From assembly GCA_965228695.1 (NCBI GenBank), contig CBDDIB010000002.1, forward strand, positions 1,497,089 to 1,561,088: DNA of 64,000 nt, written 5' to 3'. Shown here in pieces: positions 6,370 through 59,944 of this stretch. The notes beneath the pieces were generated by a model. It worked only from the letters and a program-made list of their open reading frames with translations, ran no database searches and was not told the DNA's origin. Both the position numbers and the translations under genes were made by a program. The DNA is from Alphaproteobacteria bacterium. Lineage in GTDB: Bacteria; Pseudomonadota; Alphaproteobacteria; UBA8366. Positions within the stretch are counted from its first letter, which is position 1. Every line of letters begins with the position of its first letter.

Positions 6370-6443
6370 TGGGGCGTAGCCAAGCGGTAAGGCAACGGGT
6401 TTTGATCCCGTGATCGCAGGTTCGATCCCTGCCGCCCCAGCCA
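6370..6443 (+). tRNA. tRNA-Gln (anticodon TTG), CCA encoded
   Basis: TGGGGCGTAGCCAAGCGGTAAGGCAACGGGTTTTGATCCCGTGATCGCAGGTTCGATCCCTGCCGCCCCAGCCA. The 7-bp acceptor stem TGGGGCG/CGCCCCA pairs. The anticodon loop is TTTTGAT. The T-arm is GGTTCGATCC. Closely resembles E. coli tRNA-Gln as I remember it. Confidence 0.9.
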
Positions 6444-6498
6444 CTCCTTCGTCAAATCCTACCGGGACCGACCGTTTCGAGGTCGGCCGGATTGACGC

Positions 6499-8055
6499 TC
6501 ACGCAACCGTCGCGCTGTCGCTGTTGCCGGCGTCGAATTCGGTACTTGTCCATATCACCCGTTCCGCTGGGAAGCCGATCGATACGGTTGTGCCGATTCC
6601 GACGGTACTGTCGATTGACATCGTGGCGTCGTGCAGTTTCACCAAAGATGCGACCAACGGTAAGCCCAATCCCGCCCCTTCGATATTGCGCGTATGCGCA
6701 TTGTTCGCGCGTTCGAACGGCGCCATGAGTCGGCTGATGTCGGTTTCGGAAATGCCGACGCCGGTATCGGTGATGGTAATCTCGAGGCTGCCGTCGCTCT
6801 CAACATTCACGCTGAGCAACACGCGGCCTTCCTCATCGGTAAATTTTACGGCGTTGGTCAGCAGGTTGAGAACAATTTGGCGCAATGCGCGTTCGTCGGC
6901 GCGCAATGCCGGCAGGTTCTCTGGAAAGCGGGCGTCGAGCTGCAGTTTGCCGGCGCGTGCTTGGCCTTGGACAAGACGCATCGCGGTCGAAACGATTGCG
7001 CGAAGATCCACGTCCTCCTCGAAGAGTTCATATTTACGGGCTTCGATTTTGGACAGATCAAGAAGCACATTGATGAGGTCGAGGAGGTAAAGACCGCTGT
7101 CGCGGATGTCGTTTACATACCCTTCGTAGCGGTTGTTTTTAAGTGGTCCGTGCACTTCGCTCACCATCGCTTCGGAAAATCCGTTGATTGCGTTCAACGG
7201 CGTACGCAACTCGTGACTCATGTTTGCGAGAAATTCCGATTTGCTGTGGTTCGCTTGTTCGGCGGTCTCCTTGGCCAATCTCAATTCTTCATTGTGCTGC
7301 TGCGCTTTATCCAGATGGGCGCGCTCTTGGACGACAAGGCGCGTCAGCCGGCGCAGCAGGAAAGCAAACATCCACAGGCCGGTGATGACTCCAATAACCA
7401 TGAACGCGTAGAGACCGAAATGGCGCGCGTTATCCAAGATGGAGAGTGTCGGGAGACCAACCTGAACGCTTTGCACCCCGCGCAGGTCACCGACTGCCCA
7501 GTTGGTTTTCGGGCTGTCCTTCCGGCTGTTGTGGCAAGCGACGCAGCTTGCGCCCATACGAACAGGCGCCGCGTAGCGCAAAATCTGCACGCCGTCGATG
7601 TGTTCGACCCGAACGAAGTGATCCTTATCGCCCTGCTGCAGGGCCTTCAACGCGTCTGATTCGAACGCGTCCCGCGGTCCCCCATCAATCCGCCAGGGAA
7701 ACGGGTATGCACTGTAGAACCGGAATTTACCGCCTTCGGAAGTTTGGCTCACACGTTCGCCGAGCTCAATCGAGAGGGTTGCCGGCAGCGGAATGGCGCC
7801 GTCGCTATCGTGATAGGCGTGCGTGACGGTAGCGCCTCCTTTACGTGCACGAGGCACGATCTCGGAAGAATAGAAATCGCGAATACTCGCCATGGCGTCG
7901 GAATACGCTTCCGCACTCTTGTGCGCCGTGTTGTAGGCGATCTTGTCCGATATTGAGGAAATCTGAACGACGACCAGGACGAATCCGACGGCCGCGAAAA
8001 AAGAAAGCGCCTGGATCGGTCGGTGGGTCAGAATGTCAGAAAACCAATGTGTCAT
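6499..8055 (-). CDS. sensor histidine kinase with periplasmic CXXCH (heme-c type, DUF3365/Tll0287-like) domain
   Basis: TM1 IQALSFFAAVGFVLVVV. Periplasmic domain containing CVACH (codons at 7531-7545, checked in the DNA). TM2 FGLYAFMVIGVITGLWMFAFLL. H-box SHELRTPLNAI. N/G boxes NLLTNAVKFT, DTGVGI, GAGLGLPLV. No response regulator is adjacent. Confidence 0.9.
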   Translation of the reverse strand: MTHWFSDILTHRPIQALSFFAAVGFVLVVVQISSISDKIAYNTAHKSAEAYSDAMASIRDFYSSEIVPRARKGGATVTHAYHDSDGAIPLPATLSIELGERVSQTSEGGKFRFYSAYPFPWRIDGGPRDAFESDALKALQQGDKDHFVRVEHIDGVQILRYAAPVRMGASCVACHNSRKDSPKTNWAVGDLRGVQSVQVGLPTLSILDNARHFGLYAFMVIGVITGLWMFAFLLRRLTRLVVQERAHLDKAQQHNEELRLAKETAEQANHSKSEFLANMSHELRTPLNAINGFSEAMVSEVHGPLKNNRYEGYVNDIRDSGLYLLDLINVLLDLSKIEARKYELFEEDVDLRAIVSTAMRLVQGQARAGKLQLDARFPENLPALRADERALRQIVLNLLTNAVKFTDEEGRVLLSVNVESDGSLEITITDTGVGISETDISRLMAPFERANNAHTRNIEGAGLGLPLVASLVKLHDATMSIDSTVGIGTTVSIGFPAERVIWTSTEFDAGNSDSATVA

Positions 8056-8327
8056 AACGATAATTTTTTTGCTTAGCCAAGGCGGGTCGACATCCCCTTG
8101 AGGTCTAGTGCGCCGAAATTTTCCGACGCTTGGTGCCGTGGGCGACCTAGATATGATGTATACGTCGTAATTATTGATGAACCTGTATTGAATACACTTT
8201 GCAGTAGAAACCTTGAATGAACCGTTAATGGTTCAAGTCGAATGGCCGCCCTAAATCGGTTTTGGGATGACGTATCGTGAGATTCTATCTCACTGAATTT
8301 CAAGGATTTCTAACTATAATACCCGCG

Positions 8328-8972
8328 CTAATCCAACGCCCGTGCGATCGCGCGAATGGCGGCGGGGACCGGTTCGATCAGCGGTATCGCCATCCTTGGC
8401 GCCAGTGTCTTGGCGGCTTGGGCCAAGGGGCCACCGCCGATCACCACCGCCTCCGCGCCGTCGTTCACGCAACGCTGAATGGCGCTTGCGAGCGCATCGG
8501 CCAGCCGGGCCGGGTCGGCCATATTGTAGGACGCATCGCCGTCGGTAAGGCGGGTCGACACGAACTGCGCCGCGACGCCGTAAGCCTCGGCGCGTTTCCG
8601 GATGGCGGCTTCGAGACCGGGCAGCGTGGTGGCAACGCCGAATCGCCTCCCGCCGGCGGCGGCTTCGGTCATGCCGGCCTCGGCGATACCCGTCACCGGT
8701 ACGGGCAGGCTTTGCCGTGCTGCGTCGAGGCCTGGATCGCCGAAGGCCGAAATGACGTAGCCGTCCGCGTTGTCCTCGATCGAGGCCAGCAATGCCGCGA
8801 CTGCGTTCGCGGCGCTCTTCAAGCCGGCCTCGTCGGTAATCAGTGGCGGGCCTTCGTTGACGGTGGCGCCGGTCACGGTGATCCCTGATGGCGCCGCGGC
8901 CTGGGCGATGTCCGCCATCAAGCGCGTCGTCGTTGTATTGGTGTTGGGGTTGATCAGCGTGATGCGGCGCAT
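8328..8972 (-). CDS. Asp/Glu/hydantoin-racemase-fold protein (non-canonical: single Cys)
   Basis: MRRITLINPNTNTTTT...YVISAFGDPGLDAAR...AVVIGGGPLAQ resembles PF01177-type proteins (hydantoin racemase/Dcg1-like). Lies 45 nt downstream of the TPR::ATP-grasp gene on the same strand. Confidence 0.7.
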   Translation of the reverse strand: MRRITLINPNTNTTTTRLMADIAQAAAPSGITVTGATVNEGPPLITDEAGLKSAANAVAALLASIEDNADGYVISAFGDPGLDAARQSLPVPVTGIAEAGMTEAAAGGRRFGVATTLPGLEAAIRKRAEAYGVAAQFVSTRLTDGDASYNMADPARLADALASAIQRCVNDGAEAVVIGGGPLAQAAKTLAPRMAIPLIEPVPAAIRAIARALD

Positions 8973-9017
8973 GGCGTGTTCCGGGAGGGCTGTTCTTGCC
9001 GATCCATCGTGCCGGCG

Positions 9018-10778
9018 TTAGCCCGTGGGCATTGGTTTTCCGGCACGGTCGAAAAGATAAGCTTCGATGGCGTGCATCATCTCATGCGCGAACGGCGTGC
9101 GGTAGTCGGGACTTGTACCGCTCGACAACCCGGCCAGCGACAGACCCATGGCGGCGTTGATCTCGTAGACGACGACCCTGCCATCGGTACGAAAGCCGAA
9201 GTCGATGCCGTAGATGTCCAGGTCGGTCGTGTCGGTTACCTCCCGGAAGACGTCTTCCGGCGCGGCGCCCAGCACGGCTTCGGGGGAGGCATGAAAGGCG
9301 ATCTCTTCTTTGTCCAACCCGAGGGTCTTCCAATCAAGTGTGGTGAGACTCTCGCCGTGCACGTTCCAATCCGATCCGAAATGCATGCCGCACGGGCGCA
9401 TGGTGTCGCCGATGATGGCGATTCGATACCGGCGGAACAAACCATCCTCGGACCGGCAGTCATGATAGGCGATCGCATAGAAATCCGCGAAGGGATGATT
9501 TTGTAGGATACTGGTAAGCTCCGCTTCGTCTTGCACCTGCGTGGCGCCGTGGCCGGAATTCGTGTGCGACGGGCGCAGAATGATCGGTAACGCCATCTCG
9601 GCGAGAATACGGTCGCGGGTCGCGGCGACGTCGGCTTCGTGAGCGATTCGGATCGTGTGAGGAAAGGTGAACGTCTCGGCCGCGGCGAAGCGTTTAGCAT
9701 TTCCCGCGCGCGTGGTCTGTTTCACCGCCGCCGGCGTATTGACCAGCGGCATCGGCAGGGCTGCGCCCATGCGGTCGGTCCGCTCGGCATGGCCGCGTGC
9801 GTCGATGCGTTCGAAGACCGGCCGGTTGTTCAAGGCAATGTCGAACTCGGACAAATCCAGCACGTCGTCGAGATTTCCGATGGTGTCGGACAATACATGG
9901 GTGAATGCGATCCGGCCCGCCGGCAAGAATGACGGGAAATTACCCTGTGCATAGACAATCGGATGATGCTCGATGTTGGTAAAGGACTCTTCGCCAAAGG
10001 CGTCGAGAACCAGCACCCGTAAAGCCGGGGTGCCCGAACTGCGCGTCTGGCTCGGAAAATTCTCGATTGCGGCACGGGTGATCCGTTCGGCGTCGACCGT
10101 GGCGCCACTGTGGTAGCTTGCGGCCGCCAAGGCTTGGTAATGTTTCATCTTGTCCGGATCTGCGGACAGGACCGTCGAGAATGCCTGCCGGGCGTCGGCG
10201 AACCGCCCCATGCGAAACATCAGCCGGCCCCACAGATAATTCCGGTCGGTCGGCGGCCCGATGTTGTTTTTCAACGCATTGCGGATGACCGCGGCGGCGT
10301 CTTCGAATTGGCCGGATTCGATCAACGCGTCGGCATAGGCCATCTGGAGGTCGCCGCGCTTCGGTTCGGTTTGCACCGCGACCTTTAGATCGTCGGCGGC
10401 GTCCCGGTATCGGCCGAGCGCCGCCCGTATCATCCCCCGATTGCGGCGCGCCGAGAAATGCTCGGGTGATGCCTCGATCGCCGCGTCTAGGTGGCGCAGG
10501 CCGGCTTCGTGTTCGCCGTTTTGGATAAGCGCGGCGCCGAAATTGCTCAGGGCCGTCGGATTGTCCGGCAGGAGGACGAGCGCCGCCTCGGCGCGTTTGC
10601 GCGCGACCGCGAAGTCCCGGCGCTGCATGGCGATCCCGAAGCTGAGCGTCTGGGCTCCGGCATGGGTCGGTGTTTCGACAAGAATGCCGGCCAGCAGAGT
10701 TTCGGCCTCGTCGAATCTTCCCTTCGTCGCGGCCTCCGATGCCATTTCGAACGCGCTTTTTCCGTTCTGATCGTCCAT
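9018..10778 (-). CDS. TPR repeat :: ATP-grasp-like ligase fusion (paralogue A)
   Basis: The N-terminal ~240 aa are TPR-like. The C-terminal part has PIILRPSHTNSGHGATQV, GLFRRYRIAIIGD and DIYGIDFGFRTDGRVVVYEINAAMG, reminiscent of RimK-type ATP-grasp folds. Assigned by eye only. Confidence 0.65.
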   Translation of the reverse strand: MDDQNGKSAFEMASEAATKGRFDEAETLLAGILVETPTHAGAQTLSFGIAMQRRDFAVARKRAEAALVLLPDNPTALSNFGAALIQNGEHEAGLRHLDAAIEASPEHFSARRNRGMIRAALGRYRDAADDLKVAVQTEPKRGDLQMAYADALIESGQFEDAAAVIRNALKNNIGPPTDRNYLWGRLMFRMGRFADARQAFSTVLSADPDKMKHYQALAAASYHSGATVDAERITRAAIENFPSQTRSSGTPALRVLVLDAFGEESFTNIEHHPIVYAQGNFPSFLPAGRIAFTHVLSDTIGNLDDVLDLSEFDIALNNRPVFERIDARGHAERTDRMGAALPMPLVNTPAAVKQTTRAGNAKRFAAAETFTFPHTIRIAHEADVAATRDRILAEMALPIILRPSHTNSGHGATQVQDEAELTSILQNHPFADFYAIAYHDCRSEDGLFRRYRIAIIGDTMRPCGMHFGSDWNVHGESLTTLDWKTLGLDKEEIAFHASPEAVLGAAPEDVFREVTDTTDLDIYGIDFGFRTDGRVVVYEINAAMGLSLAGLSSGTSPDYRTPFAHEMMHAIEAYLFDRAGKPMPTG

Positions 10779-10805
10779 GCTGCGGTCTTTCGACTCCTCT
10801 GCCGG

Positions 10806-12581
10806 TCAGTTCGCCGAAATGGGCGATTCCTCAGCGCTGTGTGCTTTCGCCTTCTCGAACAACATGTCGGTGATCATTCCCTTGATTTGGTCGCACTGCG
10901 CAGTTCGATACGGAAACGTCTCCAAATCGCCGCCGTTCGCGATTGCCATCGCGCTGTTGACTTCGAAGACGATGATCCGGCCGTCTTCCTTGCGGATGCC
11001 GAAATCGATTCCAAAGACGTCAAGGTCCGTTGCGTCGACGATGTCGCGGAAGAACTCTTCGGGCGGTGCGCCGAGCACTTCTTCCGGATTTTCCCAGAAG
11101 TTTTTCTCCTCGACGTCGAAACCGAGTTCGGCCCATTTTTCGGGCCCATGCTCCCAGCTATGGACGTTCCATTTGAAATCGGCGCGTAGCCCGTCGGGGA
11201 TGAGGTGCCCGTCGATGCAGGCAATTCGATAGCGCCGGAACAATCCGTCCGGCGACGTACAGTCATGGTAGTCGATCGCGTAGAAGTAGGACAAAGGGTT
11301 CTGCCGGAGTACCTCGCGTAGGCCGTCTTCGTCCTCGATGAGCATGACGCCGTGGCCGACATGGGTGTGGCGCGGGCGAAGGATGATCGGGAACCGCGTA
11401 TTGGCCAAAACTTGTTCAACGGTGGCGTCGATGTTTGTTCCATGCCGGACGCCAATCGTGCGTGGAAAGATAAAGTTTTCCGCATCGGCAAACCGTTTGG
11501 CGTTCGCCTCCCGCGTCATCTTGCTCACCGCCGCCGGCGAGTTCACGATGGGTATCGGCAGTTCCGATACCCATTTCTGGTACTCATCGGCATGCTTGCG
11601 CGCCTCGAGCCGTTCGAAGACCGGCCGGTTGTTGATGGCGATATCGAACTGACCCATATCCAGTGCGTCATTCAGATCGCAGCCGGTATCCGCGATGGCG
11701 TGGGTATATGTGATCCGATCGATCGGCAGGAATGCCGGGAAATTTCCCATGATGTAATTGACCGGGTGACGGCCGATGTCGGTAAAGAAATCCAGGCCCA
11801 TCGGCTCGAGCACCAAAACTCGAAAATCGGAATCGGCGCTGCCGCGCTCGAAGCTTGGGAACTTTCGGTAAGCGCCCGCCGTGACCTTTTGTGCGTGGAG
11901 CATGTCGCCGCAGTGGAAACTCGCCGCCGCTAGGGCCCGATAGTGTTTCATTTCGCTCGCATCGGCCGATAGAACCGCGGCGAATGATTGCCGCGCGTCG
12001 GTAAATCGGTTCATGCGAAACATCAGCCGGCCCCAGAAAAAGGTTCGCTCGAGCTGTGATCCCACGTTGAGGTCCTTGGCTTCGCGAATTGCCGCCGCGG
12101 CTTCTTCATGCAGTCCCGATTCGATCAACGCATCTGCCAGCGCCATGCGCGTATCGCCGCGGTCCGGCTGAGCGGCGACGGCGACTTTGATATCCGCGGC
12201 GGCTTCCGCGTACTCACCGAGGGTCGCCTTCAACATCCCGCGATTACGCCGCGCGTAAAAATGATTGGGGTCCGCTTCGATCGCCGCGTTCAGATGCGGC
12301 ATCGCGGCCGCGAAATCGTTGCTTTGGATGAGCGCAGCTCCAAGATTGCTCAGCATGCTCGGATCGTCCGGCATGAGGGTCAATGCCGCCTCCGCGCGTT
12401 TCCGGGCGAGCGCGAAATCCTTGCGCTGCATGGCAATCGCGAAACTCAGGGTCTGAGCCTTGCTGTCCCTCGGCGTTTCGAGCAGCACGGCGGCCAGCAG
12501 AGTCTCGGCGTCGTCCAGCCGCCCGTTTTTGGCGGCTTCGGACGCTTGTGCGAAGGCTGTCATTTCCTGTGGCTCGCTCAT
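10806..12581 (-). CDS. TPR repeat :: ATP-grasp-like ligase fusion (paralogue B)
   Basis: Collinear with paralogue A over its full length, with the majority of positions identical by eye. Examples: AQTLSFAIAMQRKDFALARKRAEAAL; PIILRPRHTHVGHGVMLI; DVFGIDFGIRKEDGRIIVFEVNSAM. A 27-nt gap separates it from A. Confidence 0.65.
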   Translation of the reverse strand: MSEPQEMTAFAQASEAAKNGRLDDAETLLAAVLLETPRDSKAQTLSFAIAMQRKDFALARKRAEAALTLMPDDPSMLSNLGAALIQSNDFAAAMPHLNAAIEADPNHFYARRNRGMLKATLGEYAEAAADIKVAVAAQPDRGDTRMALADALIESGLHEEAAAAIREAKDLNVGSQLERTFFWGRLMFRMNRFTDARQSFAAVLSADASEMKHYRALAAASFHCGDMLHAQKVTAGAYRKFPSFERGSADSDFRVLVLEPMGLDFFTDIGRHPVNYIMGNFPAFLPIDRITYTHAIADTGCDLNDALDMGQFDIAINNRPVFERLEARKHADEYQKWVSELPIPIVNSPAAVSKMTREANAKRFADAENFIFPRTIGVRHGTNIDATVEQVLANTRFPIILRPRHTHVGHGVMLIEDEDGLREVLRQNPLSYFYAIDYHDCTSPDGLFRRYRIACIDGHLIPDGLRADFKWNVHSWEHGPEKWAELGFDVEEKNFWENPEEVLGAPPEEFFRDIVDATDLDVFGIDFGIRKEDGRIIVFEVNSAMAIANGGDLETFPYRTAQCDQIKGMITDMLFEKAKAHSAEESPISAN

Positions 12582-12695
12582 CCGGCTTCCTTCGTCCCTA
12601 CGGCGTTCGGGACGATAGTACCGCCTTGAGCGTGGGCAAGCCGAATCCCTCGAAAGGATAATCCTTTTACGCCATTCGGGGTATCGGATAGCGGG

Positions 12696-13430
12696 TTAGC
12701 GGTTCCGCTGCATCGTCTCGATATAGCGCTGGATCCGGTCTTTCAGGCCGGACTTGGCGGCGGAGCGGACCAAATCCGCCATATCCTCGGCGCGGGTATC
12801 CTGGGCCGTGGCGTCGAACAGGGCGCGGGTTGCGTCCGTTTCAAGCGTCCGGGCCGCGGCGCTGGCCGTGTCGATGATCGCCGGCCATTCGTCCTCGGCG
12901 GCGAGGCCGGTGGCGAAACCCATATCCTTGGCTTCGTCAGCGTCGAACGCGCGGGTTTCGTTTTGGATCGCGCGAGCGGCATCGACGCCGATCCGCGACA
13001 CCAGCCGCCGGGTTCCAAGGACGATCCCGAACGCCAGGCCCGGCATTCGGAAGGTGGTTCCGGGCGCGGCGACCCGCTGGCTGCAGGCGCAGAACACATC
13101 GGCGCCGGCCCCCATGGCGCGGCCGTTCGCCAGGGCAAGTGTCGGAAAAGGCAGATGGTAGAGTTTCTGCAGCAGGCTCTCGATCCGGATGAATCGCAGC
13201 AGGAGATCCCCGTCGCTGCGTTCTCCGATGTCGCTGAGATCAAAGCCCGCGCAGAAGTGCTTTCCCGCAGCGTCGAGAATCAGCAGGCGAGTATCGCCGT
13301 CCTCGGCATGCGCGATGGCGTCCGCGAGCGCGTCTACCATCTCTTCGTTCAGCGCATTCGCCTTTTCGGGCCGGTTCAGGGTGACCCGGACCACGCCCTC
13401 GCTTTCGGGGCTTACGGCAACGACCGTCAT
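12696..13430 (-). CDS. enoyl-CoA hydratase/isomerase family protein
   Basis: VTLNRPEKANALNEEM, FCAGFDLS, ALANGRAMGAGADVF. ATG lies 9 nt after the upstream PhyH stop. Confidence 0.85.
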   Translation of the reverse strand: MTVVAVSPESEGVVRVTLNRPEKANALNEEMVDALADAIAHAEDGDTRLLILDAAGKHFCAGFDLSDIGERSDGDLLLRFIRIESLLQKLYHLPFPTLALANGRAMGAGADVFCACSQRVAAPGTTFRMPGLAFGIVLGTRRLVSRIGVDAARAIQNETRAFDADEAKDMGFATGLAAEDEWPAIIDTASAAARTLETDATRALFDATAQDTRAEDMADLVRSAAKSGLKDRIQRYIETMQRNR

Positions 13431-13439
13431 ACCGCTGAC

Positions 13440-14354
13440 CTAAACGTGGGCGGGCTGCGGCGCGACCTTGCCCTCGCCGCCAAAGTAGCGGTTCTGCAGA
13501 ATGCTCTGGTTGTCGTAGATCGACCCTGGGCCTGCGTCCGGCTGGTACGGCAGCGGGATGCGAACCGGCGCGGGCACGACCCGCGGTGACAGGGTCGGCT
13601 CGCCCCGCACGATACGATTGTTGAAATCCTCCAGGCTGCCCTTCATGTCCGCGATCGGCCAGGCGTCCACCGCCGCATAGGCCTGCAGCAGGAAGGTGCG
13701 CGGCCGGTCGGACCGGTTGAAGGCGGATCCGTGAACCAGACGGGCATGATGAACGGTCAGCGTGCCTGCCGGGCCGGTCAACGGCACCGCGGCGGAGAAG
13801 TCGAGATCGCAGGCGTCCGGATCCATCGCGCCGCAGAAATACCCTTGTGAATGGTGGTCGTAGGTCGGGCCTTTATGCGTTCCCGGCAGGACCAGCATGG
13901 GGCCGTTCTCTTCCGTGCAGTCGTCAAGGTAAATGCCGACCGCGAGCACGTCGTCATTGGTGTGCGGGTAGAATGCCCAATCCTGATGCCATTCGACGGA
14001 TTCGCCGACACCGGCGGATTTCATGTTCACCTTGGTGTTGTGCGTTCGGATGCCGCTCGGGCCGAGGATGGGATCGAGGATGTCCATGATCAGCGGTTCC
14101 GCGGCATGCGCGCGGAAGAACTCGGAATTTGCATGAGGTGATTTGATGCGGCGCACGCGCGGCGTTTCCGGCGTGTGGGACGGGTCGAGATCGAGCACGT
14201 CGCTGCTCTCTGTAAGATTGACCGCGTCCGCGACCATCCGGTCGACTTCGGCCTTGATTTCTGCGATCCGCGCCGGCGCGACCGCATTGGGGAGCACGAT
14301 GTATCCCTGCTCGAAATACGTATCCACCTGTTCTTGCGTCAGTCTCGCCGCCAT
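13440..14354 (-). CDS. phytanoyl-CoA dioxygenase (PhyH) family Fe(II)/2OG oxygenase
   Basis: LTQEQVDTYFEQGYIVLPNAV, WHQDWAFYPHT (HxD), HHARLVHGSAFN. Start moved to ATG 14354, preceded by AGGAGA. Track start is 14390. Confidence 0.85.
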   Translation of the reverse strand: MAARLTQEQVDTYFEQGYIVLPNAVAPARIAEIKAEVDRMVADAVNLTESSDVLDLDPSHTPETPRVRRIKSPHANSEFFRAHAAEPLIMDILDPILGPSGIRTHNTKVNMKSAGVGESVEWHQDWAFYPHTNDDVLAVGIYLDDCTEENGPMLVLPGTHKGPTYDHHSQGYFCGAMDPDACDLDFSAAVPLTGPAGTLTVHHARLVHGSAFNRSDRPRTFLLQAYAAVDAWPIADMKGSLEDFNNRIVRGEPTLSPRVVPAPVRIPLPYQPDAGPGSIYDNQSILQNRYFGGEGKVAPQPAHV

Positions 14355-14542
14355 GCTTCTTCTCCTGCACCGATATTGTTGCGCTATCATACAGGCTTAA
14401 GGAGCCATGGGCGAGGGGGCGGGCGGGCGTGTCCCACGCCGGCTGGATTTGACAGGATAGCGGGAATCCCTGAGTTTTTGGGCTGTGTCCGGTCGGGCAT
14501 CGGTCCACAGCGGTCGCATCAAAATCCGGAGGATGGTCAGGA

Positions 14543-15745
14543 ATGGCGGATGAACTCGCCTTCGAAGGGCTCAAGGTATTCGACATGTCGCAGGGCGTTG
14601 CAGCGCCGTATTGCGGCATGCTGCTGGCGCTGAACGGCGCGGACGTGATCAAGATGGAACCGCACGCCCCCGGCGACTGGAGCCGTTCGATGGGCAAGCC
14701 CTACGGCGATCAAAGCGCCAGTTCGGTGATCCTGTGCCGGGGGAAGCGTAGCATCGCGCTCGACCTGAAGAAGCCGGCAGGAAACGAGATCGCCAAGAAA
14801 CTCGCGGCGGAGGCGGACGTGATCCTGCAGAATTACCGGCCCGGCGTGATCGAGAAATTCGGCCTCGACTACGAGTCGGTGCGCTCGGGCAACCCGGACG
14901 TGATCTATCTTTCCTTGACCGGTTTCGGGCCGGCCGGACCCAAGGCGAAGCTGCCGGCGACGGATTCCGTCATGCAGGCGTTTACCGGGTTCATGTCGAT
15001 CAATCGGGATGAGTCGGGGACGCCGCAACGCATCAACTATTATGCGATCGACGTCATCACCGGGCTCTATTCCTTCCAGGCCGTCTCGAGCGCGCTCTAC
15101 CGGCGGGCGACCAAGGGCGGCGGCAAGCATATCCGGACCAGCCTTCTGGAATCGGCATTGAGTTTCCAGGACGTGAAGATGGTGGAATTCCAATTGGAGG
15201 GTCCGGTTGCCGAACCGATCGGCGCGCCGGTCGGCACCTTCAAGAGCAAAGATGGGCATATCTGCGTCAACGCGCGCCGCGATCCGCATTTTCAGGCGCT
15301 GTGCCGGTTGCTCGGCCGCGAGGAGTTGATCGGCGATCCGCGTTATGCGGACGCGCGATCGCGGGTCGCCAATCGCGAGGATCTCCTGACCATCCTACAA
15401 GACACAATCGCGACGCGGACCACGGCGGAATGGGTCGAGGCGCTCAGCGAGATCGATATCCTGAACGCGCCGGTGAACGATTACGGCAATCTGTTCCAGG
15501 AGGCGCAGGTCAAGGCGGTCGATGCCGTGCGTTGGATCGAGGCTGACGCGGTCGGCAAGGTCCCGATGGGCAATATCGCCGGCGTACCGGCGGCCGCGAC
15601 CGATAATCCACGATCGCATTCCCCCCACATTGGCCAGCATAGCCGCGAGATTCTCGCCGAACTGGGGATGAGTGAATCCGAAATCGACGCCCTGTGCGCG
15701 GACGGCGCGGTTGCCGCCTACGACACCAAATTGGCAGCGGAATAG
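14543..15745 (+). CDS. CoA-transferase family III (CaiB/BaiF-like), paralogue 1
   Basis: FEGLKVFDMSQGVAAPYCGMLLALNGADVIKMEP, NYRPGVIEKFGLDYESV, AIDVITG. Confidence 0.9.
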   Translation: MADELAFEGLKVFDMSQGVAAPYCGMLLALNGADVIKMEPHAPGDWSRSMGKPYGDQSASSVILCRGKRSIALDLKKPAGNEIAKKLAAEADVILQNYRPGVIEKFGLDYESVRSGNPDVIYLSLTGFGPAGPKAKLPATDSVMQAFTGFMSINRDESGTPQRINYYAIDVITGLYSFQAVSSALYRRATKGGGKHIRTSLLESALSFQDVKMVEFQLEGPVAEPIGAPVGTFKSKDGHICVNARRDPHFQALCRLLGREELIGDPRYADARSRVANREDLLTILQDTIATRTTAEWVEALSEIDILNAPVNDYGNLFQEAQVKAVDAVRWIEADAVGKVPMGNIAGVPAAATDNPRSHSPHIGQHSREILAELGMSESEIDALCADGAVAAYDTKLAAE

Positions 15746-15753
15746 GAAATCTA

Positions 15754-16974
15754 ATGAGCGATGAACCGGCCTTCGCCGGGCTCAAAGTCTTCGACGCGTC
15801 GCAAGGCGTAGCCGCGCCGCATTGCGGCCTGCTGTTGGCGCAGCACGGGGCGGACGTCGTCAAGATGGAGCCGTTGAATGGCGATTGGAGCCGTGTTCTC
15901 GGCAAGAGCCTCGGCGATTACAGCCCGTATTCGCTGATCGTGAACCGCGGGAAGCGCAGCATCGCGCTCGATCTGAAGACGGATGACGGCCGCGCTATTG
16001 CGCAGCAGCTGGCCGCCGACGCCGACGTCATGCTGCAAAACTTTCGGCCGGGCGTGATGAAACGGTTCGGCCTCGACTACGAGTCGGTCCGCGCCGAGAA
16101 TCCGAACGTAGTTTACATGTCGCTGTCCGGTTTCGGTCAGACCGGACCCTACAGCAGCCGGCCTGCGACCGACATGGTGCTGCAGGCATTCAGCGGTTGG
16201 ATGTCGATCAACAAGGATCCGTCCGGCAAGCCGCAGCGCATCAATATGGTCGCGATCGATGTCATGTCGGGGCTGTACGCATTTCAGGCGGTCAGTACCG
16301 CGCTGTACCGCAAGGCGATGAAGGGTGTGGGGACGCATATCGAGATGAGCCTGATGGAGGCGGCGGCAGCCCTGCAGTCCGCGCCGGTGGTCGAGCATCA
16401 TTTCGGCATCAACCGCGCGGAAGGGATCGGCGTGCCGATCGGCGCCTTCAAGACCAGGGACGGATTTATCAATATCAATGCGCGCCGCGATCCGGTCTTC
16501 GCGAAATTCTGCCGCCTGCTCGGGCGGGAGGACCTGATCGAAGACCCTCGTTTCAAGACTCCGGCCGCGCGTGTCGAGAACGAGGCGCCGCTGCTCGCCA
16601 TGATCGAGGACGTTATCCAGACCCGCACAACGGCGGAATGGGACCGTGATCTCACCGAGTTGGATATCCTGCATGCGGCGGTCAACGATTACGGCGATTA
16701 TCTCGCCGACGCCCACGTTCAGGAAACCGGTGTGGTCTCCCATGTGATGCACGAAACCGTCGGAACGATTCCGATGACCAAAATACCGGGTCTACCGGCG
16801 GCCGAAACCGGCAATCCTCTGTCCCACGCACCGCATATTGGCGAACACACCATCGAAATCCTGACCGGCCTTGGTTTCACCGAGGATAAGATCGCCGCAT
16901 TGCGCGACGGGAGTATCGTCGGACAGTACGATCCCGACAAAGCGCCTGCGAATGCAGGGATGGCGCCTCCTTGA
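15754..16974 (+). CDS. CoA-transferase family III, paralogue 2
   Basis: ATG at 15754 (MSDEPAFAGLKVFDASQGVAAPHCG...), 8 nt after the stop of paralogue 1. Collinear with paralogue 1, more than half identical by eye. Confidence 0.9.
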   Translation: MSDEPAFAGLKVFDASQGVAAPHCGLLLAQHGADVVKMEPLNGDWSRVLGKSLGDYSPYSLIVNRGKRSIALDLKTDDGRAIAQQLAADADVMLQNFRPGVMKRFGLDYESVRAENPNVVYMSLSGFGQTGPYSSRPATDMVLQAFSGWMSINKDPSGKPQRINMVAIDVMSGLYAFQAVSTALYRKAMKGVGTHIEMSLMEAAAALQSAPVVEHHFGINRAEGIGVPIGAFKTRDGFININARRDPVFAKFCRLLGREDLIEDPRFKTPAARVENEAPLLAMIEDVIQTRTTAEWDRDLTELDILHAAVNDYGDYLADAHVQETGVVSHVMHETVGTIPMTKIPGLPAAETGNPLSHAPHIGEHTIEILTGLGFTEDKIAALRDGSIVGQYDPDKAPANAGMAPP

Positions 16975-23398: not shown

Positions 23399-24061
23399 TT
23401 ACGGTGTGGAGTATCGCTGCACCTGCACGAGAAGGTCCGTCATCCGCCGATCGCGGAATCCGAATTCCGACAGACAGGATACCGTGTTCTTAAGATAGTC
23501 CCGGCAGCTTCCCAGTCGACCCTCCGCCGTGGCAAGGCGTTTGACCACCGTGGCCGGATCGAGCTTCCCGACGTATCGGGCGTGGTGCCGGTTGCTCGCG
23601 AAGGTGATGGCGCGGACATTGGACGTCGCTCCGGCAACCGTCACCCAGACCGGGCGATAGGTGCCGGCGAGCATTTCGCGTGCCCATACAATGTCCAGTT
23701 CTTCATGCACCGAGTCGGCGGCGATCCGGAAGGCGAGACCGCAACAGGAGCCGCCGGGTTCCAGGGCCAGCATCATGCCCGGCCGGTCCTCGGTCCCGCG
23801 GCCCGCGGTGGAAATCATGCAGTAACTGCGATGGTAACCGTGAATCCGTCCCGGCAGCCGGTCGACGAAATGAAAGGCCGGGTTCCACATCAGCGATCCG
23901 TATCCGAAGACCCATACGTCGCCGCCGTTCGGCACCGCGGACAGCATGGCGTTCTTGGAGGCCTCGCGTTCAGCGTCGGTCCAAATCCGGCCGTGGCGGC
24001 GGCTGTTGGCGGCCATCTCCTTGAAGGCGCCCCGTCGAATGGCGTCGCGGTCTAATGTCAC
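23399..24061 (-). CDS. ChaC-like gamma-glutamylcyclotransferase
   Basis: [42 protein letters not shown] start with no obvious SD, so the start is uncertain. Confidence 0.8.
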
Positions 24062-24440
24062 GGGTTGGAAATCCGAATGAAGTGAATTGGTTACGATCTA
24101 CCGGGCTATGCCGGCGTTGGCAAGCGCGACGCGTCTCCGATCGGCGGTGGTGGGGCTATCGAAAACCGTCGCGCACGAACGATCGAATTAATCGATTAAA
24201 TCAAATCAAAATATAAATAAATAGAAAAATCATCAAAATCAATTGCGAATCGAGAAATCAGAGAATTCGAACTATATATCCATCGATAATGTCGATTAAC
24301 ATAATCAAAATATTTGATTTACTTGTTCATTTTGTGGCTAAACCGCAACAATATTGCCTCATGATTCAGTTTCATATGGTTTTTAATTGGATATGGGAAA
24401 GAGATACGCGATTACTTGTGCAGCGAACTGAGACGTTTCC

Positions 24441-24475
24441 TGTGGTTTGCGACGCAGTGTGGCAATTGCGACGGA
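24441..24475 (+). promoter_or_regulatory. tandem direct repeat TGTGG-N1-TTGCGACG / TGTGG-N3-TTGCGACG in the conserved porin leader (copy 1)
   Basis: TGTGG at 24441 and 24458. TTGCGACG at 24447-24454 and 24466-24473. Conserved base for base in copy 2. Confidence 0.4.
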
Positions 24476-24536
24476 AGGACAGGGCGGTTCGATTTGTTTT
24501 TGGGGAGTTTGCAAGTTTATCAGTGTGGAGGTTTTC

Positions 24537-25733
24537 ATGACCAAGTTAAACAAAGCGTTGATGGCCACGACCGCCATTGCCTTTGCATCCGGTCTGGCTC
24601 TTCCGGCATCCGCTCAGGATCCGTCGAAAGCGCCAGGCGTCGTCAAGAGCAACGACAAAATTAAGCTTCGGCTGTACGGGCAGATCACCCGTCAGTTCGG
24701 TTTCGTCAACGACGGCGAGTCGACTACGTTCAAGCAAGGTCCGAACGGCAACACCTCGACCCGCATGGGCATCGACGGCCGCGGCAAGGTGACGAAGGAT
24801 GTCAACATCCGGACTCGCCTCGAATTCGCCCTAAATACCGGCAACAGCACGGGTGGTCCGCAGTTCGAGAACCAGCCCGGTTCGAACGACTTCGACATCC
24901 GCCATCTGGACGTGATCTTCAGCCACAAGAAGGCTGGCGCGATCTGGATCGGCCGCGGCGACTCCGCCACCAACGGCACGTCGGAAGTTAACCTGGCGCC
25001 GGGTATGAGCACCGGTCGTTTGGGTGGTTCGACCCATCACGCCGCCAGCGAATTCCGCTTGATGGACGAGGACGATAGTATTGAGCCGCAGCAGGTCGGC
25101 ACGATCGATCGTTTCTTCTCCAACTTCGATGGCGCGGGCCGGCAAAACCGTATTCGCTACGACACGCCGACCCTCTTCGGCTTCAAGGCGTCGGCCAGCA
25201 TCATCGACAAGCACAACTTCGATGCGGCCCTGCGCTACAGCGGCAAGATCGCGGGTACGGCGATCAAGAGCGCCGTCGGTTATTGTAACACCCAGGGTGC
25301 CCGTTCGTCCGGTGACGGCTCGTGCTTCGGTAACGGCGGCACGATTCGCGGCCAATCGACGGTCAACGGCTCGGTTTCGGTCAAGACTCCGATCGGTCTC
25401 GGCGCGACCTTCTCGGGCGCCAAGCAGTGGCAGAATACGTCCCCGACGACGGTGAACGAAGGCGATCCGTACAACATCCAGCCTTCGATCTGGTACACCA
25501 CGAAGGTTACCGAGCTTGGCGCGACGACTGCCGAATACGCCTTCCAGTACTGCAAGCATTGCGGTCTGAAAGACGACAAGGGCATCGGCCATGCCGTGAC
25601 CATCCTTCAGAAGGTCGATAGCACGGGTGGTGACTACTTTGCCACGTTCCGTCTGTATGATGTGGAGACGGCCACGAACGACAATATCGAGAACCTGTGG
25701 TTCGTCGGTGCCGGCTTCCGCCAACGCTTCTAG
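24537..25733 (+). CDS. outer-membrane porin, paralogue 1
   Basis: ATG 24537 follows GTGGAGG. Signal peptide MTKLNKALMATTAIAFASGLALPASA/QD. Alternating beta-strand-like pattern. C-terminal GAGFRQRF with terminal Phe. Confidence 0.8.
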   Translation: MTKLNKALMATTAIAFASGLALPASAQDPSKAPGVVKSNDKIKLRLYGQITRQFGFVNDGESTTFKQGPNGNTSTRMGIDGRGKVTKDVNIRTRLEFALNTGNSTGGPQFENQPGSNDFDIRHLDVIFSHKKAGAIWIGRGDSATNGTSEVNLAPGMSTGRLGGSTHHAASEFRLMDEDDSIEPQQVGTIDRFFSNFDGAGRQNRIRYDTPTLFGFKASASIIDKHNFDAALRYSGKIAGTAIKSAVGYCNTQGARSSGDGSCFGNGGTIRGQSTVNGSVSVKTPIGLGATFSGAKQWQNTSPTTVNEGDPYNIQPSIWYTTKVTELGATTAEYAFQYCKHCGLKDDKGIGHAVTILQKVDSTGGDYFATFRLYDVETATNDNIENLWFVGAGFRQRF

Positions 25734-25751
25734 GGAGTTTGAGCTGATTTG

Positions 25752-25934
25752 ATGCGAATCCTCCGCACCTTGTTGATCGCTTCCATTGCTCTGGCCCCGC
25801 CGTTGGCGCTTAGCGCCTGCGGCTGGGTCAAGGGCGACAAGGACGTCGATACGTCCGACGGTGAAGGGGCGATTGGTAAAGGGCCCGGACTATTGACCGG
25901 GAAACGCGGCGGCATCATCATCTTTCAGCGGTAA
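25752..25934 (+). CDS. small lipoprotein (60 aa precursor), paralogue 1
   Basis: MRILRTLLIASIALAPPLALSAC with lipobox LSAC. 18 nt after the porin stop. Duplicated with the porin (57 of 60 residues identical, 3 substitutions). Confidence 0.65.
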   Translation: MRILRTLLIASIALAPPLALSACGWVKGDKDVDTSDGEGAIGKGPGLLTGKRGGIIIFQR

Positions 25935-25952
25935 ATCCCGACCGAATCTTGG

Positions 25953-25995
25953 ACCGGCCCCGTCTCTCTTTGGAGAGGCGGGGCCGGTTCTGTTT
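25953..25995 (+). terminator. intrinsic terminator-like hairpin after module 1
   Basis: 16-bp stem ACCGGCCCCGTCTCTC / GAGAGGCGGGGCCGGT with one G.U pair and loop TTTG. Followed by a weak U-tract, TCTGTTT. Confidence 0.55.
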
Positions 25996-26305
25996 AAATA
26001 ATTGATCAAAAACGATAAAATTATCAATCGGCCCGTCCGGTTTATCCAAAAAAATCAATCGTTGCCCGGCTTGTAATCGCTCTCGTCGATGGTTGGATAA
26101 CTGCATTTGAATTCGCCGCGCCGGCGATGGCTTTGCGGGTTCGTCACCCATTTCCGAAATTCATAGAAATTCAGCGTCTTAGGCGGCCTTTCAGTTTGTC
26201 GCAATTGTGCAACAGGGATTTCCACACATTGGACAATCGGATGTTTTTAATTGGACAAACCGATTGATGACTTACTACTTTCTTCCAGCGAACTGAGACG
26301 TTTCC

Positions 26306-26340
26306 TGTGGTTTGCGACGCAGTGTGGCAATTGCGACGGA
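26306..26340 (+). promoter_or_regulatory. tandem direct repeat TGTGG/TTGCGACG in the conserved porin leader (copy 2)
   Basis: TTGCGACG at 26312-26319 and 26331-26338, the same arrangement as copy 1. Confidence 0.4.
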
Positions 26341-26401
26341 AGGACAGGGCGGTTCAAGTTGTTTTTGGGGAGTTTGCAAGTTTATCAGTGTGGAGGTTTT
26401 C

Positions 26402-27601
26402 ATGACCAAGTTAAACAAAGCGTTGATGGCAACAACCGCCATTGCCTTTGCGTCTGGTCTGGCTCTTCCGGCATCCGCTCAGGATCCGTCGAAAGCGCCG
26501 GGCGTCGTTAAAAGCGGCAACAAAATGAAAATTAAGCTGTACGGGCAGATCACCCGTCAGTTCGGTTTCGTCAACGACGGCGAAGCTTATACGTTCAAGC
26601 AAGGCTCGAACGCCAACACCTCGAACCGTATGGGCATCGATGGTCGCGGCAAGATCACGAAGGACGTCAATGTCCGGACCCGCCTCGAATTCGCCATTAA
26701 TCCCGGTGATTCGCATGGTGGTGAGCAGTTCAGCAATGCACCGGGTTCGAACGACTTCGACATCCGCCATCTGGACGTGATCTTCAGCCATAAGAAGGCT
26801 GGCGCGGTCTGGATCGGCCGTGGCGACTCGGCCACCAACGGCACGTCGGAAGTTAACCTGGCACCGGGTATCGGTACTGGTCGTCTGGGCGGTTCCGTCC
26901 ATCATGCCATCAACGAATTCCGTTTGATGGACAAGAATGACGGCCTCGCGGCTCAGTCGGTTGGCACGGTTAACCGCTTCTTCAACAGCTTTGACGGCGC
27001 AGGCCGGGTGAACCGTATTCGTTACGACACGCCCTCCTTCTTCGGTTTCAAGGCTTCGGCCAGCATCATCGACAAGCACAACTTCGACGCAGCCCTGCGC
27101 TATAGCGGCAAGATCGCCGGTACGGCCATCAAGGCCGCGGCGGGCTTCTGCGAAAGTAAGGGTGCTTCGAACTCGAATGACGGCGCGTGCTTCGGCAACG
27201 GCGGCACCATCGAAGGTGTTGCCAATGTCAACGGCTCGATCTCGGTCAAGACCCCGATCGGCCTGGGCGCCACCTTCTCGGGTGCCAAGCGCTGGCAGAA
27301 TCGTGCCGGTGTTGCCCATTCGACCGAAGGCGATCCGTACAACATTCAGCCTTCGATCTGGTACACCACGAAGGTTACCGAGCTTGGCGCGACGACTGCC
27401 GAATACGCCTTCCAGTACTGCAAACATTGCGGTCTGAAAGACGACAAGGGCATCGGCCATGCCGTGACCATTGCGCAGAAAGTCGATAGCACCGGTGGTG
27501 ACTACTACGCGACCTTCCGTCTCGTAGACGTCGAAACGGCCACGAACGACAATATCGAGAATTTGTGGTTCATCGGCGCTGGCTTCCGCCAACGCTTCTA
27601 G
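26402..27601 (+). CDS. outer-membrane porin, paralogue 2
   Basis: Signal peptide identical to paralogue 1 and identical C-terminal GAGFRQRF. One residue longer. Confidence 0.8.
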   Translation: MTKLNKALMATTAIAFASGLALPASAQDPSKAPGVVKSGNKMKIKLYGQITRQFGFVNDGEAYTFKQGSNANTSNRMGIDGRGKITKDVNVRTRLEFAINPGDSHGGEQFSNAPGSNDFDIRHLDVIFSHKKAGAVWIGRGDSATNGTSEVNLAPGIGTGRLGGSVHHAINEFRLMDKNDGLAAQSVGTVNRFFNSFDGAGRVNRIRYDTPSFFGFKASASIIDKHNFDAALRYSGKIAGTAIKAAAGFCESKGASNSNDGACFGNGGTIEGVANVNGSISVKTPIGLGATFSGAKRWQNRAGVAHSTEGDPYNIQPSIWYTTKVTELGATTAEYAFQYCKHCGLKDDKGIGHAVTIAQKVDSTGGDYYATFRLVDVETATNDNIENLWFIGAGFRQRF

Positions 27602-27619
27602 GGATTGCGTGCTGACTTG

Positions 27620-27802
27620 ATGCGGATCTTCCGTACCTTGTTGATAGCTTCCATTGCTCTGGCCCCGCCGTTGGCGCTTAGCGCCTGCGGCTGGGTCAAG
27701 GGCGACAAGGACGTCGATACGTCCGATGCGGAAGGCGCCATTGGCAAGGGGCCAGGTCTTCTGACCGGGAAACGCGGCGGTATCATCATCTTTCAGCGAT
27801 AG
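27620..27802 (+). CDS. small lipoprotein (60 aa precursor), paralogue 2
   Basis: MRIFRTLLIASIALAPPLALSACGWVKGDKDVDTSDAEGAIGKGPGLLTGKRGGIIIFQR. ATG 27620 is in frame with the track start 27605 (TTG). Confidence 0.65.
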   Translation: MRIFRTLLIASIALAPPLALSACGWVKGDKDVDTSDAEGAIGKGPGLLTGKRGGIIIFQR

Positions 27803-27816
27803 CAGTATCCGATTAG

Positions 27817-27856
27817 ACCGCCGGTTCGGGCTAACCCCGAACCGGCGGTTTTTTTT
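27817..27856 (+). terminator. rho-independent terminator after module 2
   Basis: 14-bp perfect stem ACCGCCGGTTCGGG / CCCGAACCGGCGGT, 5-nt loop, followed by a run of T (27849-27856). Confidence 0.8.
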
Positions 27857-28012
27857 ATGCCTGAATTTTCGAGTCCGGCTGGCGTATGAACGGTCTCGCC
27901 GCCGGCCGCGCTACGGGCCGGTCCCATCGGAGGCCTCATACATCCATAGGCGTATGCCGGGTCTGTCGTGGTTCGCCTAATGCGGTGCGCGGCGCCGTTA
28001 AGCGGCGCGGCG

Positions 28013-55927: not shown

Positions 55928-56200
55928 GATCGGAACGTCGATCCATTATGTGATGCGCGTTGTTTTCCAAATTGCTACGAGCGAAGTTGGGATACGGGAA
56001 AATCGGATAAAATTCTGATTCCTCGGGATATTTCGCGCAGCATTCGAAGGAATACCCGCAATGGTAGGCGATGGCCGCTATACCGGTCTATCGGCCACAA
56101 TGAGTATCCCTTTCAGTCAACGCCGGCGTACTAAATGACTGCCCACAAAGGTATCCCAGATTTTCGAGTGAATTGGGCTCGTTGGTTTCCAGAGGGCGAA

Positions 56201-57832: not shown

Positions 57833-57938
57833 TTCCCGCTCTTATGGCGATTTTCGGATATCGTGGTATTTCACTTCCCCGAGCCCATGGCGTACCCTTT
57901 GACCGGCTGGTTCGAACCCACCGACCGAGGAGCGCCGC

Positions 57939-58364
57939 ATGGAACCGCTGTTTCATCTTTCCATTCCCGTCGACGATCTGGACCGCGCGAAGACGTTCTA
58001 TATCGATACGCTGGGCTGCACGGTCGGACGTGAGACGCGGGGCCGGTTCGATATCAATTTCTTCGGGCACCACATCGTGGCGCATCTCTCGCCGCGGGAG
58101 GCGGCGAAGGCCAACGGCACCATCCCGTCCGACGGCGCGACCGCGCCGCTGCGCCATTTCGGCGTGATCCTGCCGCTGGACGATTGGAAGGATATGGAAC
58201 GCCGGCTGACCGATCGGAACGTCGCATTCTTGCTGTCGCCGCGCCTGTCCTTTTCGGGAAAACCGGCGGAGCAGCACATCATGATGCTGCCCGACGGCTG
58301 CGGTAACGTCGTCGAGTTCAAGTCCCAGCCCCGTGACCGCGTGTTCGCGACGGACGCGCCGTAA
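57939..58364 (+). CDS. VOC (glyoxalase/bleomycin-resistance/dioxygenase) family protein
   Basis: LFHLSIPVDDLDRAKTFYIDTLGC...HFGVILP...VVEFKS. Confidence 0.7.
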   Translation: MEPLFHLSIPVDDLDRAKTFYIDTLGCTVGRETRGRFDINFFGHHIVAHLSPREAAKANGTIPSDGATAPLRHFGVILPLDDWKDMERRLTDRNVAFLLSPRLSFSGKPAEQHIMMLPDGCGNVVEFKSQPRDRVFATDAP

Positions 58365-58388
58365 AGTCTCCGTCGATTGAGCAGAATG

Positions 58389-58940: not shown

Positions 58941-59095
58941 CCTGCATTCTCCCTAGCGGCGTATTCTCCAAGTTCTTGCGAGGATCATAGATTGGTTCTG
59001 AGACTCGGTTGAATCTCGTTTGAGATGACCGATGACCCCGGCAATTTTACAGTCTGCTGCTTCTTCAAATCCTGGACGCAAAATTGACATCCGTG

Positions 59096-59794: not shown

Positions 59795-59927
59795 TCGATT
59801 ATCTCCCTACTGTCGTGGATGGACGATCCGGCGTATGGGCAGCGCACCGTGATCGCCACGGGATTATTTGGTGGCTCCAAGTCCGGAAATCCAATGTGAC
59901 GCGCGCTTGGGTGTGGACATATCAATT

Positions 59928-59944
59928 ATTCCATTTAATGGAAT
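59928..59944. promoter_or_regulatory. perfect 17-bp palindrome ATTCCATT-T-AATGGAAT in the divergent pirin/VOC intergenic region
   Basis: All 8 arm pairs checked base by base. Lies in an AT-rich stretch 134 nt from the pirin ATG and 122 nt from the VOC ATG. Confidence 0.35.

Follow-up and report, generated by a model that had tools for sequence, protein, structure and literature searches.

We analyzed a 64,000-nucleotide (nt) stretch of an alphaproteobacterial genome assembly (GCA_965228695.1, contig CBDDIB010000002.1, positions 1,497,089 to 1,561,088), which is referred to here as the window. The subject is a group of three adjacent genes. Two of them encode paralogous proteins, TG1 and TG2, in which a tetratricopeptide repeat (TPR) array precedes a predicted ATP-grasp domain. 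The third encodes a 214-aa protein with a racemase fold. We propose that TG1 and TG2 form a paired ATP-dependent amide ligase whose substrate is a peptide or protein bound by the TPR part, and we give this reading a probability of about 0.45, somewhat short of even odds. Both would be catalytically competent ATP-grasp ligases that reside in the cytoplasm and belong to a separate family resembling RimK and LysX. As in RimK and LysX, each enzyme would use bound Mg-ATP to convert a carboxylate into an acyl-phosphate, from which an amide is formed with an amine. The substrate peptide or protein is most likely gripped by the solenoid of seven TPR repeats; TPR domains hold the substrate in other modifying enzymes. 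The paralogues probably cooperate, as subunits of a hetero-oligomer or by catalysing two consecutive steps.

A first-pass annotation of this stretch, made from the letters alone, knew of no characterized system that combines TPR::ATP-grasp proteins with a racemase-fold protein. Our full-text literature searches pairing TPR with ATP-grasp returned nothing relevant and found no characterized TPR::ATP-grasp system. The RimK-type genes mentioned in a Paraburkholderia paper on random-barcode transposon sequencing (RB-TnSeq) turned out to be unrelated to the TG family.

TPR repeats and ATP-grasp domains of TG1 and TG2

TG1 and TG2 align end to end with 54% identity over 580 residues and 3 gaps (E = 0), and the two proteins of about 590 residues are thus the collinear paralogues that had been predicted. 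The predicted N-terminal TPR array was found by three approaches. Pfam TPR families cover residues ~10-240 of both proteins (TPR_19, E 8e-18 and 1e-19); in TG1, TPR_19, TPR_16 and TPR_2 matched at E 1e-15 to 1e-18. The AlphaFold (AF2) model of full-length TG1 (predicted local distance difference test, pLDDT, 89.3; predicted template modelling score, pTM, 0.81) has 14 helices, H9-18 to H227-240 by DSSP, corresponding to seven TPR-like repeats that are followed by an alpha/beta domain. Foldseek matched the TPR part to consensus TPR structures and to the TPR structures of O-GlcNAc transferase (OGT) at E 1e-10 to 1e-12. On the model, the region is a solenoid of tandem 34-residue helix-turn-helix repeats. 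Residues R111, R112, R114 and G115 (RRNRG) as well as G184, R185 and R189 of the repeats are invariant in a set of sequences with 38-74% identity. An N-terminal TPR superhelix followed by a catalytic domain is also the layout of OGT and SPINDLY (SPY), whose TPRs are aligned to the TPR part by Foldseek at E ~1e-9. In those enzymes, however, the catalytic domain is a GT-B glycosyltransferase instead of an ATP-grasp domain. The likeness is architectural only, and we infer substrate capture by the TPR part.

For the C-terminal halves, the library matches were marginal. The RimK family (PF08443) reached 21.7 bits against a cutoff of 21 in TG1, over 45 residues, and gave no match above cutoff in TG2. 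The NCBIfam model rimK_fam (TIGR00768, cutoff 143.4 bits) was missed by both proteins, with 33.8 bits for TG1 and 20.3 bits for TG2. The RimK profile matched only 13 of 93 representatives of the wider family. We built a family profile from 15 C-terminal domains and searched it against the PDB. The best match was Thermus LysX (3vpd, E 5.4e-9), followed by CPSase, biotin carboxylase, RimK and Ddl. A model of the ATP-grasp domain alone (pLDDT 86.7) was matched by Foldseek to LysX/ArgX (5k2m, 3vpb) at E 5e-12 and a TM score of 0.55-0.67. Synapsin, D-Ala-D-Ala ligase, ITPK1 and RimK ranked next. Judged by these profiles and models, the C-terminal halves of TG1 and TG2 are ATP-grasp domains of the RimK/LysX type, as the first-pass annotation had suggested from short motifs. 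These motifs are present in both proteins: PIILRPRHTHVGHG, RRYRIACI and GIDFGIRKEDGRIIVFEVNSAM in TG1, and PIILRPSHTNSGHG, RRYRIAII and GIDFGFRTDGRVVVYEINAAM in TG2. The third one is not shared exactly, as it differs between the paralogues by a one-residue indel and a V/I change.

LysX, ArgX and RimK are accordingly the closest known proteins by sequence profile and by fold. LysX and ArgX are amino-group carrier-protein ligases, and RimK is the glutamate ligase of ribosomal protein S6. Enzymes of this type attach an amino acid to a protein at its C-terminal carboxylate, and the RimK family also includes small-molecule ligases. In an alignment of 30 sequences, in which TG2-type sequences were included, the invariant columns were N347, R357, P373, P398, R402, G409, R452, W471, H474, E492, L520, D526, E540 and M545. 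Across the 93 distant representatives, R402, R452, W471, H474, D526 and E540 were still invariant. D526 and E540 were invariant, and N542 was present in at least 90% of the sequences, in the 30-, 15- and 93-sequence sets. Both paralogues keep all conserved catalytic residues.

Alignment to LysX places these residues in the active site. The 'FEVN' of the TG family is aligned to 'NEVN', the D...E-x-N ligands of Mg2+, and 'RRYRIA' to 'RDIRVF', with R452 opposite the arginine of 'DIRV'. 'PIILRP' is aligned to 'PVVLKP', and R402 stands exactly opposite the lysine of 'VVLKP'. R357 stands at or beside the lysine of 'GDK', with an offset of one residue in the HMMER alignment. Both residues are arginine family-wide; ATP-grasp enzymes typically have two phosphate-binding lysines. 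W471-N472-V-H474 occupies the place of 'HWITN'. The ATP-grasp ligands, whose conservation the first-pass annotation wanted checked, are thus kept in D526, E540, N542 and R452. By alignment, the family retains its ligands for the nucleotide and for Mg2+, with arginine in place of the canonical lysine throughout; this substitution is a conservative one.

The TG family therefore has in common with LysX and RimK the elements P-x-h-h-[KR]-P...G-x-G, the catalytic-loop arginine, an N/H substrate loop and D...E-x-N. Unlike these enzymes, it has R402 for the canonical lysine and R357 at or beside the other lysine position. It also has WNVH in place of an N-x-x-R-G-G-type loop, an insert of ~45 residues with an invariant E492 and a near-invariant E491, and, on TG1 and TG2, the N-terminal fusion of seven TPR repeats. 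The identity to LysX/RimK is only ~15%, in addition to the scores below the rimK_fam cutoff, and no LysW- or S6-like partner is linked. From the conserved ATP-grasp machinery and the affinity to LysX/RimK, ATP-dependent carboxylate-amine ligation appears the most likely chemistry.

A different activity was also considered. The ATP-grasp domains could be kinases, like ITPK1, or non-catalytic ATP-binding modules, like synapsin, with the TPR repeats serving assembly or signalling. ITPK1 and synapsin are among the top Foldseek matches (E ~1e-10), and the arginine in place of the canonical lysine would fit such a role. In contrast, the sequence-profile matches are ligases (LysX, RimK, CPSase, Ddl), and the E-x-N Mg2+ motif and the LysX-type arginine are invariant family-wide. 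We regard a kinase or a non-catalytic module as quite improbable.

The wider family and its link to dioxygenases

Relatives of TG1 and TG2 are numerous. A word-seeded search returned only 36 relatives, one of them named from a Phycisphaerae metagenome-assembled genome (MAG). An exhaustive profile search gave 1,542 cluster representatives (50% identity) at E <= 1e-30 and 2,740 at E <= 1e-10. A genome scan detected 186 relatives in Bradyrhizobium, Nitrobacter, Hyphomicrobium, Paraburkholderia/Burkholderia and one Terriglobia MAG. Members appear in databases under no names other than 'tetratricopeptide repeat protein' and 'TauD/TfdA family dioxygenase'. The family defined by this ATP-grasp domain is large, has no dedicated Pfam or NCBIfam model and no informative database name, and our literature searches turned up no paper on it. 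TPR repeats are present in 54 of the 93 representatives. One member (P0106, 837 aa) carries an N-terminal NTP_transf_5 domain (PF14907, an uncharacterized nucleotidyltransferase) instead.

Pairs of family genes are frequent. Two adjacent members, in tandem or head to head, were observed at 25 of 82 loci. In a neighbour-joining tree, the head-to-head partners split into two old clades. Separate duplications gave rise to TG1, TG2 and the third paralogue found in genomes related to the window, to the pair at locus L083 and to the pair at L026. Such recurrent pairs favour two enzymes acting together.

The second recurrent partner is a dioxygenase. A TauD/TfdA domain is fused to 11 of the 93 representatives, and scans of ten further long members added six such fusions. 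Of the 150 best representatives, at least 17 have the domain, mostly as TauD::(TPR)::ATP-grasp. The orders observed were TauD::TPR::ATP-grasp, TauD::ATP-grasp and one reversed ATP-grasp::TauD (P0052). Members in which TauD comes first are P0051, P0053, P0056, P0064, P0067, P0097, P0101, P0107, P0150, P0160, P0171 and P0174. At one locus (L086, 7149-9491), a separate TauD gene ends 30 nt before the TPR::ATP-grasp gene. The genes with fused TauD domains stand alone in their neighbourhoods (L084, L085). Because a tblastn search of 84 loci found no TauD homologues beside the family members, the dioxygenase link is drawn from the fusions and from L086. That the fusion occurs in both domain orders indicates that hydroxylation and ligation are steps of one pathway. 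Across the wider family, the ligase step would thus be coupled to an Fe(II)/2-oxoglutarate dioxygenase. In the window, the PhyH-family dioxygenase two positions upstream of TG1 may fill this role; by comparison with the TauD fusions, it is a possible functional counterpart of the domains fused elsewhere.

The other neighbours of family members were less constant. No general conserved neighbour was found across 80 genome loci. Those observed were lineage-specific and included SDR proteins, two-component pairs, TRAP/TctC binding proteins and acyl-CoA dehydrogenases. A gene for an M28 peptidase neighbours a family member in 11 loci. In four Bradyrhizobium-type loci (L039, 976-9527, with a gap of 25 nt; L055, L075 and L077), a member directly follows, on the same strand, an operon of a DUF2126 amidoligase, a circularly permuted ATP-grasp (CP_ATPgrasp)+Alpha-E protein and a transglutaminase-like protein. 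The window lacks the DUF2126 operon, and only one sub-branch shows this link. Neither an S6-like nor a LysW-like gene was found linked to the family loci. A PADLOC scan for a role in anti-phage defence gave weak TPR noise only.

The main rival explanation concerns the substrate. TG1 and TG2 could be small-molecule amide ligases, like the L-amino-acid ligases or enzymes of the RIMKLA/MptN/CofF type, with the TPR repeats used for oligomerization or scaffolding. A low-molecular-weight compound would then be built or extended, perhaps a hydroxylated amino-acid derivative made together with the dioxygenase. The nearest solved relatives of the fused TauD domains and of the PhyH protein in the window are TmpA, EctD, leucine hydroxylase and phytanoyl-CoA hydroxylase, all of which use small molecules. 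The window cluster contains an enoyl-CoA hydratase and two CoA-transferases, and no gene for a substrate protein is linked. Two successive ATP-grasp ligases would also suit a product with two new bonds. On the other hand, long TPR arrays occur in more than half of the representatives, as given above. Metabolic neighbours are lacking around many free-standing members, among them the TauD fusions and the third paralogue, and the neighbourhoods vary widely between lineages, unlike those of a fixed biosynthetic cluster. We consider a small-molecule substrate possible, although on balance doubtful. A peptide or protein substrate encoded elsewhere is favoured by the fusion to TPR repeats, by the genes that stand alone and by neighbours with peptide-related functions.

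The racemase-fold protein and the three-gene unit

The racemase fold of the third protein was recognized correctly in the first-pass annotation. PF01177 (Asp_Glu_race) covers residues 4-208 of the 214 (E 6.7e-44, 150.6 bits against a cutoff of 31). The protein aligns over its full length with the allantoin racemases of Klebsiella (KpAllR, 3qvk/3qvj, E 8e-23) and Pseudomonas (PfAllR, 5lfd, E 6e-14), whose relatives include OpaE and NozR. No curated NCBIfam family was matched. A working two-cysteine racemase is not supported. The residues Cys79 and Cys184 of allantoin racemase are its catalytic acid/base pair and are conserved across the superfamily (PMC12661438). In the alignment to 3qvj, Cys79 is matched by A76 of the 214-aa protein and Cys184 by G180. 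A double mutant in the PDB, 3qvk, has serine at exactly these two positions. We aligned the best 120 homologue clusters of the protein, with 48-100% identity. Position 76 was alanine in 116 and glycine in 4 of them, position 180 was glycine in all 120, and no other column held a conserved cysteine. In contrast, the pocket motifs NPN, FGDP, E98 and GGGPL, which are shared with KpAllR and PfAllR, were more than 95% conserved. From these motifs, the protein probably still binds something, whereas on its sequence it cannot use the two-thiol 1,1-proton-transfer mechanism. We suggest that it is a conserved accessory of one subclade that more likely binds or processes a small ligand by a different chemistry.

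The racemase-fold gene had been taken as a sign of an unusual or modified amino-acid donor. The racemase would make a D- or otherwise unusual amino acid, and the TPR::ATP-grasp enzymes would then attach it to the C-terminus of a protein. In favour of this model, the three genes lie close together, their synteny extends down to ~50% TG identity, and the third one encodes a full-length PF01177 member with a well-conserved pocket. However, a racemase that supplies D-amino acids is unsupported, because both catalytic cysteines are replaced, likewise in all of the 120 nearest homologue clusters. In addition, the gene is missing beside all family members below ~47% identity, including 70-odd more distant loci. 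It is therefore not the partner of the family at large, in which the recurrent partner is the Fe(II)/2-oxoglutarate dioxygenase. Homologues of the 214-aa protein also occur in unrelated contexts, next to peptide ABC or MFS transporters or to ureide-type genes. A racemase-made donor is very improbable.

One of these homologues (L082) adjoins genes for a ureidoglycolate lyase and a PuuE-like deacetylase. The thiol-less clade comprises more than 100 clusters (P0183-P0302), which are named 'allantoin racemase' or 'Asp/Glu/hydantoin racemase' in databases. It is marked by the motifs AAFGDPG and IGGGPL and retains the conserved pocket. This clade is a separate puzzle, as its database name stands against the missing known catalytic residues.

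The arrangement of the three genes was compared between genomes. Four alphaproteobacterial MAG genomes, as well as metagenome contigs, have the whole neighbourhood in the order CoA-transferases / phyH-ech-TG1-TG2-racemase-like / ispE. This synteny alone says little, because the flanking genes in those relatives are 83-96% identical. The order TG-TG-racemase-like was found in L001-L004, L087, L090-L092 and L095. The case of L087, a 3.9-kb contig, reaches furthest: its large proteins share only 48-54% identity with TG1 and TG2, and its third protein shares 68% with the 214-aa protein, yet the order is kept with junctions that overlap or measure 33 nt. The three genes thus occur together in other genomes, as the first-pass annotation would have it. 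At L083, with 41-45% identity, the tandem TG pair is kept and the racemase-like gene is gone. By sequence comparison, the triad recurs only in one alphaproteobacterial subclade, down to ~50% TG identity. The third paralogue of related genomes is free-standing and has no racemase-like partner (L005-L007, L088, L089). It has a conserved context of its own, with a gene for a RibD_C-domain protein upstream and a convergent gene for a Gly-rich 91-aa protein downstream. No copy of the 91-aa protein was found in the window.

The features of the locus are collected in the table.

Table. Features at and around the TG1-TG2 locus, in positions of the window
Feature	Position	Strand	Basis or remark
TG1, TPR::ATP-grasp	10806-12581	minus	open reading frame (ORF) of 591 aa; 100% identical to database protein P0001
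TG1 TPR solenoid, residues 9-240	11862-12557	minus	Pfam TPR families, model helices, Foldseek
TG1 ATP-grasp domain, residues 243-585	10827-11855	minus	family profile, Foldseek, invariant columns
TG2, paralogue of TG1 with the same architecture	9018-10778	minus	ORF of 586 aa; database protein P0023
Racemase-fold gene, 214 aa	8328-8972	minus	ORF and PF01177
Conserved block, candidate promoter/operator	12586-12660	minus	six-genome alignment of the spacer upstream of TG1
Enoyl-CoA hydratase/isomerase-family gene (ech)	12696-13430	minus	PF00378, E 2e-30; directly upstream of TG1
PhyH-family Fe(II)/2-oxoglutarate dioxygenase gene	13440-14390	minus	PF05721, E 4e-38; two genes upstream of TG1
Two tandem family-III CoA-transferase paralogues	14543-16974	divergent from phyH-ech	~57% identical to each other
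tRNA-Gln gene	6370-6443		between ispE and the racemase-like gene
Tll0287-domain sensor histidine kinase gene, CxxCH motif	6499-8055		between ispE and the racemase-like gene

In the ORF listing, TG1, TG2 and the racemase-like gene are co-directional, with gaps of 27 nt (10779-10805) and 45 nt (8973-9017), exactly as first described. Since each of the three is conserved as a protein (65-89% identity) in related genomes, all three ORFs are, on this comparison, real genes. A terminator scan of the minus strand found no terminator-like hairpin between them. Together with the synteny elsewhere, the single direction, the short gaps and the lack of an internal terminator are those of a predicted three-gene operon.

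Upstream of TG1, the spacer of 114 nt includes a block that hardly varies among six genomes. Across their alignment, 64 of 120 window positions are invariant and concentrated in this block. It includes an imperfect palindrome, ATCCTTTCGAGGGAT, a TACTAT hexamer at 12620-12615 and a strong ribosome-binding site, GAAGGAAG. A generic sigma-70 scan gave no minus-strand site in the block. We infer a dedicated candidate promoter/operator of the three-gene unit, which would favour the unit as the first-pass annotation drew it. The enoyl-CoA hydratase-family gene, syntenic with TG1 only in close relatives, possibly shares a longer transcript with the TG unit. The nearest solved relatives of the PhyH protein itself are EctD, human PhyH and leucine hydroxylase. 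Together, the CoA-transferases and phyH-ech look like an acyl-CoA hydroxylation module and may be unrelated to TG1 and TG2.

On the 3' side of the racemase-like gene, a 272-nt AT-rich spacer precedes the gene of the sensor histidine kinase. Small ORFs in this spacer were unconserved, and none was a convincing substrate or carrier. The kinase gene has no counterpart at this spot in L001, L004 and L092 and is present in other relatives; the stretch 6370-8327 is therefore, on this comparison, a variable insertion point. Elsewhere in the window, G+C is 0.555-0.56 at 24001-28000 and 0.58-0.59 at 56001-60000, compared with ~0.63 in the remainder, and these two segments may be acquired.

Weighing the proposed function

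Several observations weigh against a paired ligase with a peptide or protein substrate, in addition to the arginines at the VLKP lysine and at or beside the GDK lysine and the similar Foldseek scores of synapsin and the ATP-grasp kinase ITPK1. The local context looks metabolic, with the enoyl-CoA hydratase, the two CoA-transferases and PhyH, and small molecules are common substrates in the RimK and TauD/PhyH families. No gene for a substrate or carrier was found linked, and the small ORFs nearby are unremarkable. The cooperation of TG1 and TG2 is read from gene adjacency alone. Finally, the link to PhyH was observed only in close relatives and in one weak case (L094, opposite strand).

A more specific scheme can be drawn from the paired-ligase reading, in which TG1 and TG2 are the ligase arm of an undescribed bacterial pathway of post-translational modification. 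The TPR part would select its target, perhaps through recognition of an acidic tail, as the invariant arginine cluster may suggest. One or more residues would be attached by the two ATP-grasp domains, and the same protein would be hydroxylated by the Fe(II)/2-oxoglutarate dioxygenase (TauD elsewhere, PhyH in the window). The racemase-fold protein without the thiols would be a recruited helper with a ligand-binding or reversing function. We hold this scheme to be unlikely.

The fold and the likely chemistry of TG1 and TG2 have precedents. In the literature searched, we found no description of their domain combination, of arginine at the lysine site, of the gene pairing or of the dioxygenase fusions. 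Protein-decorating ATP-grasp ligases are few, and each of them opened a field: RimK acting on S6, LysX acting on LysW, and the tubulin ligases. The family of ~1,500 clusters described here offers experimental handles in its peptide-binding fusion, its Arg-for-Lys site, its obligate-looking pairs and its dioxygenase fusion. Should the substrate prove to be a protein, soil Alphaproteobacteria and Burkholderiales would have a new modification system; should it prove to be a metabolite, the fusions would indicate a hydroxylate-and-ligate pathway.

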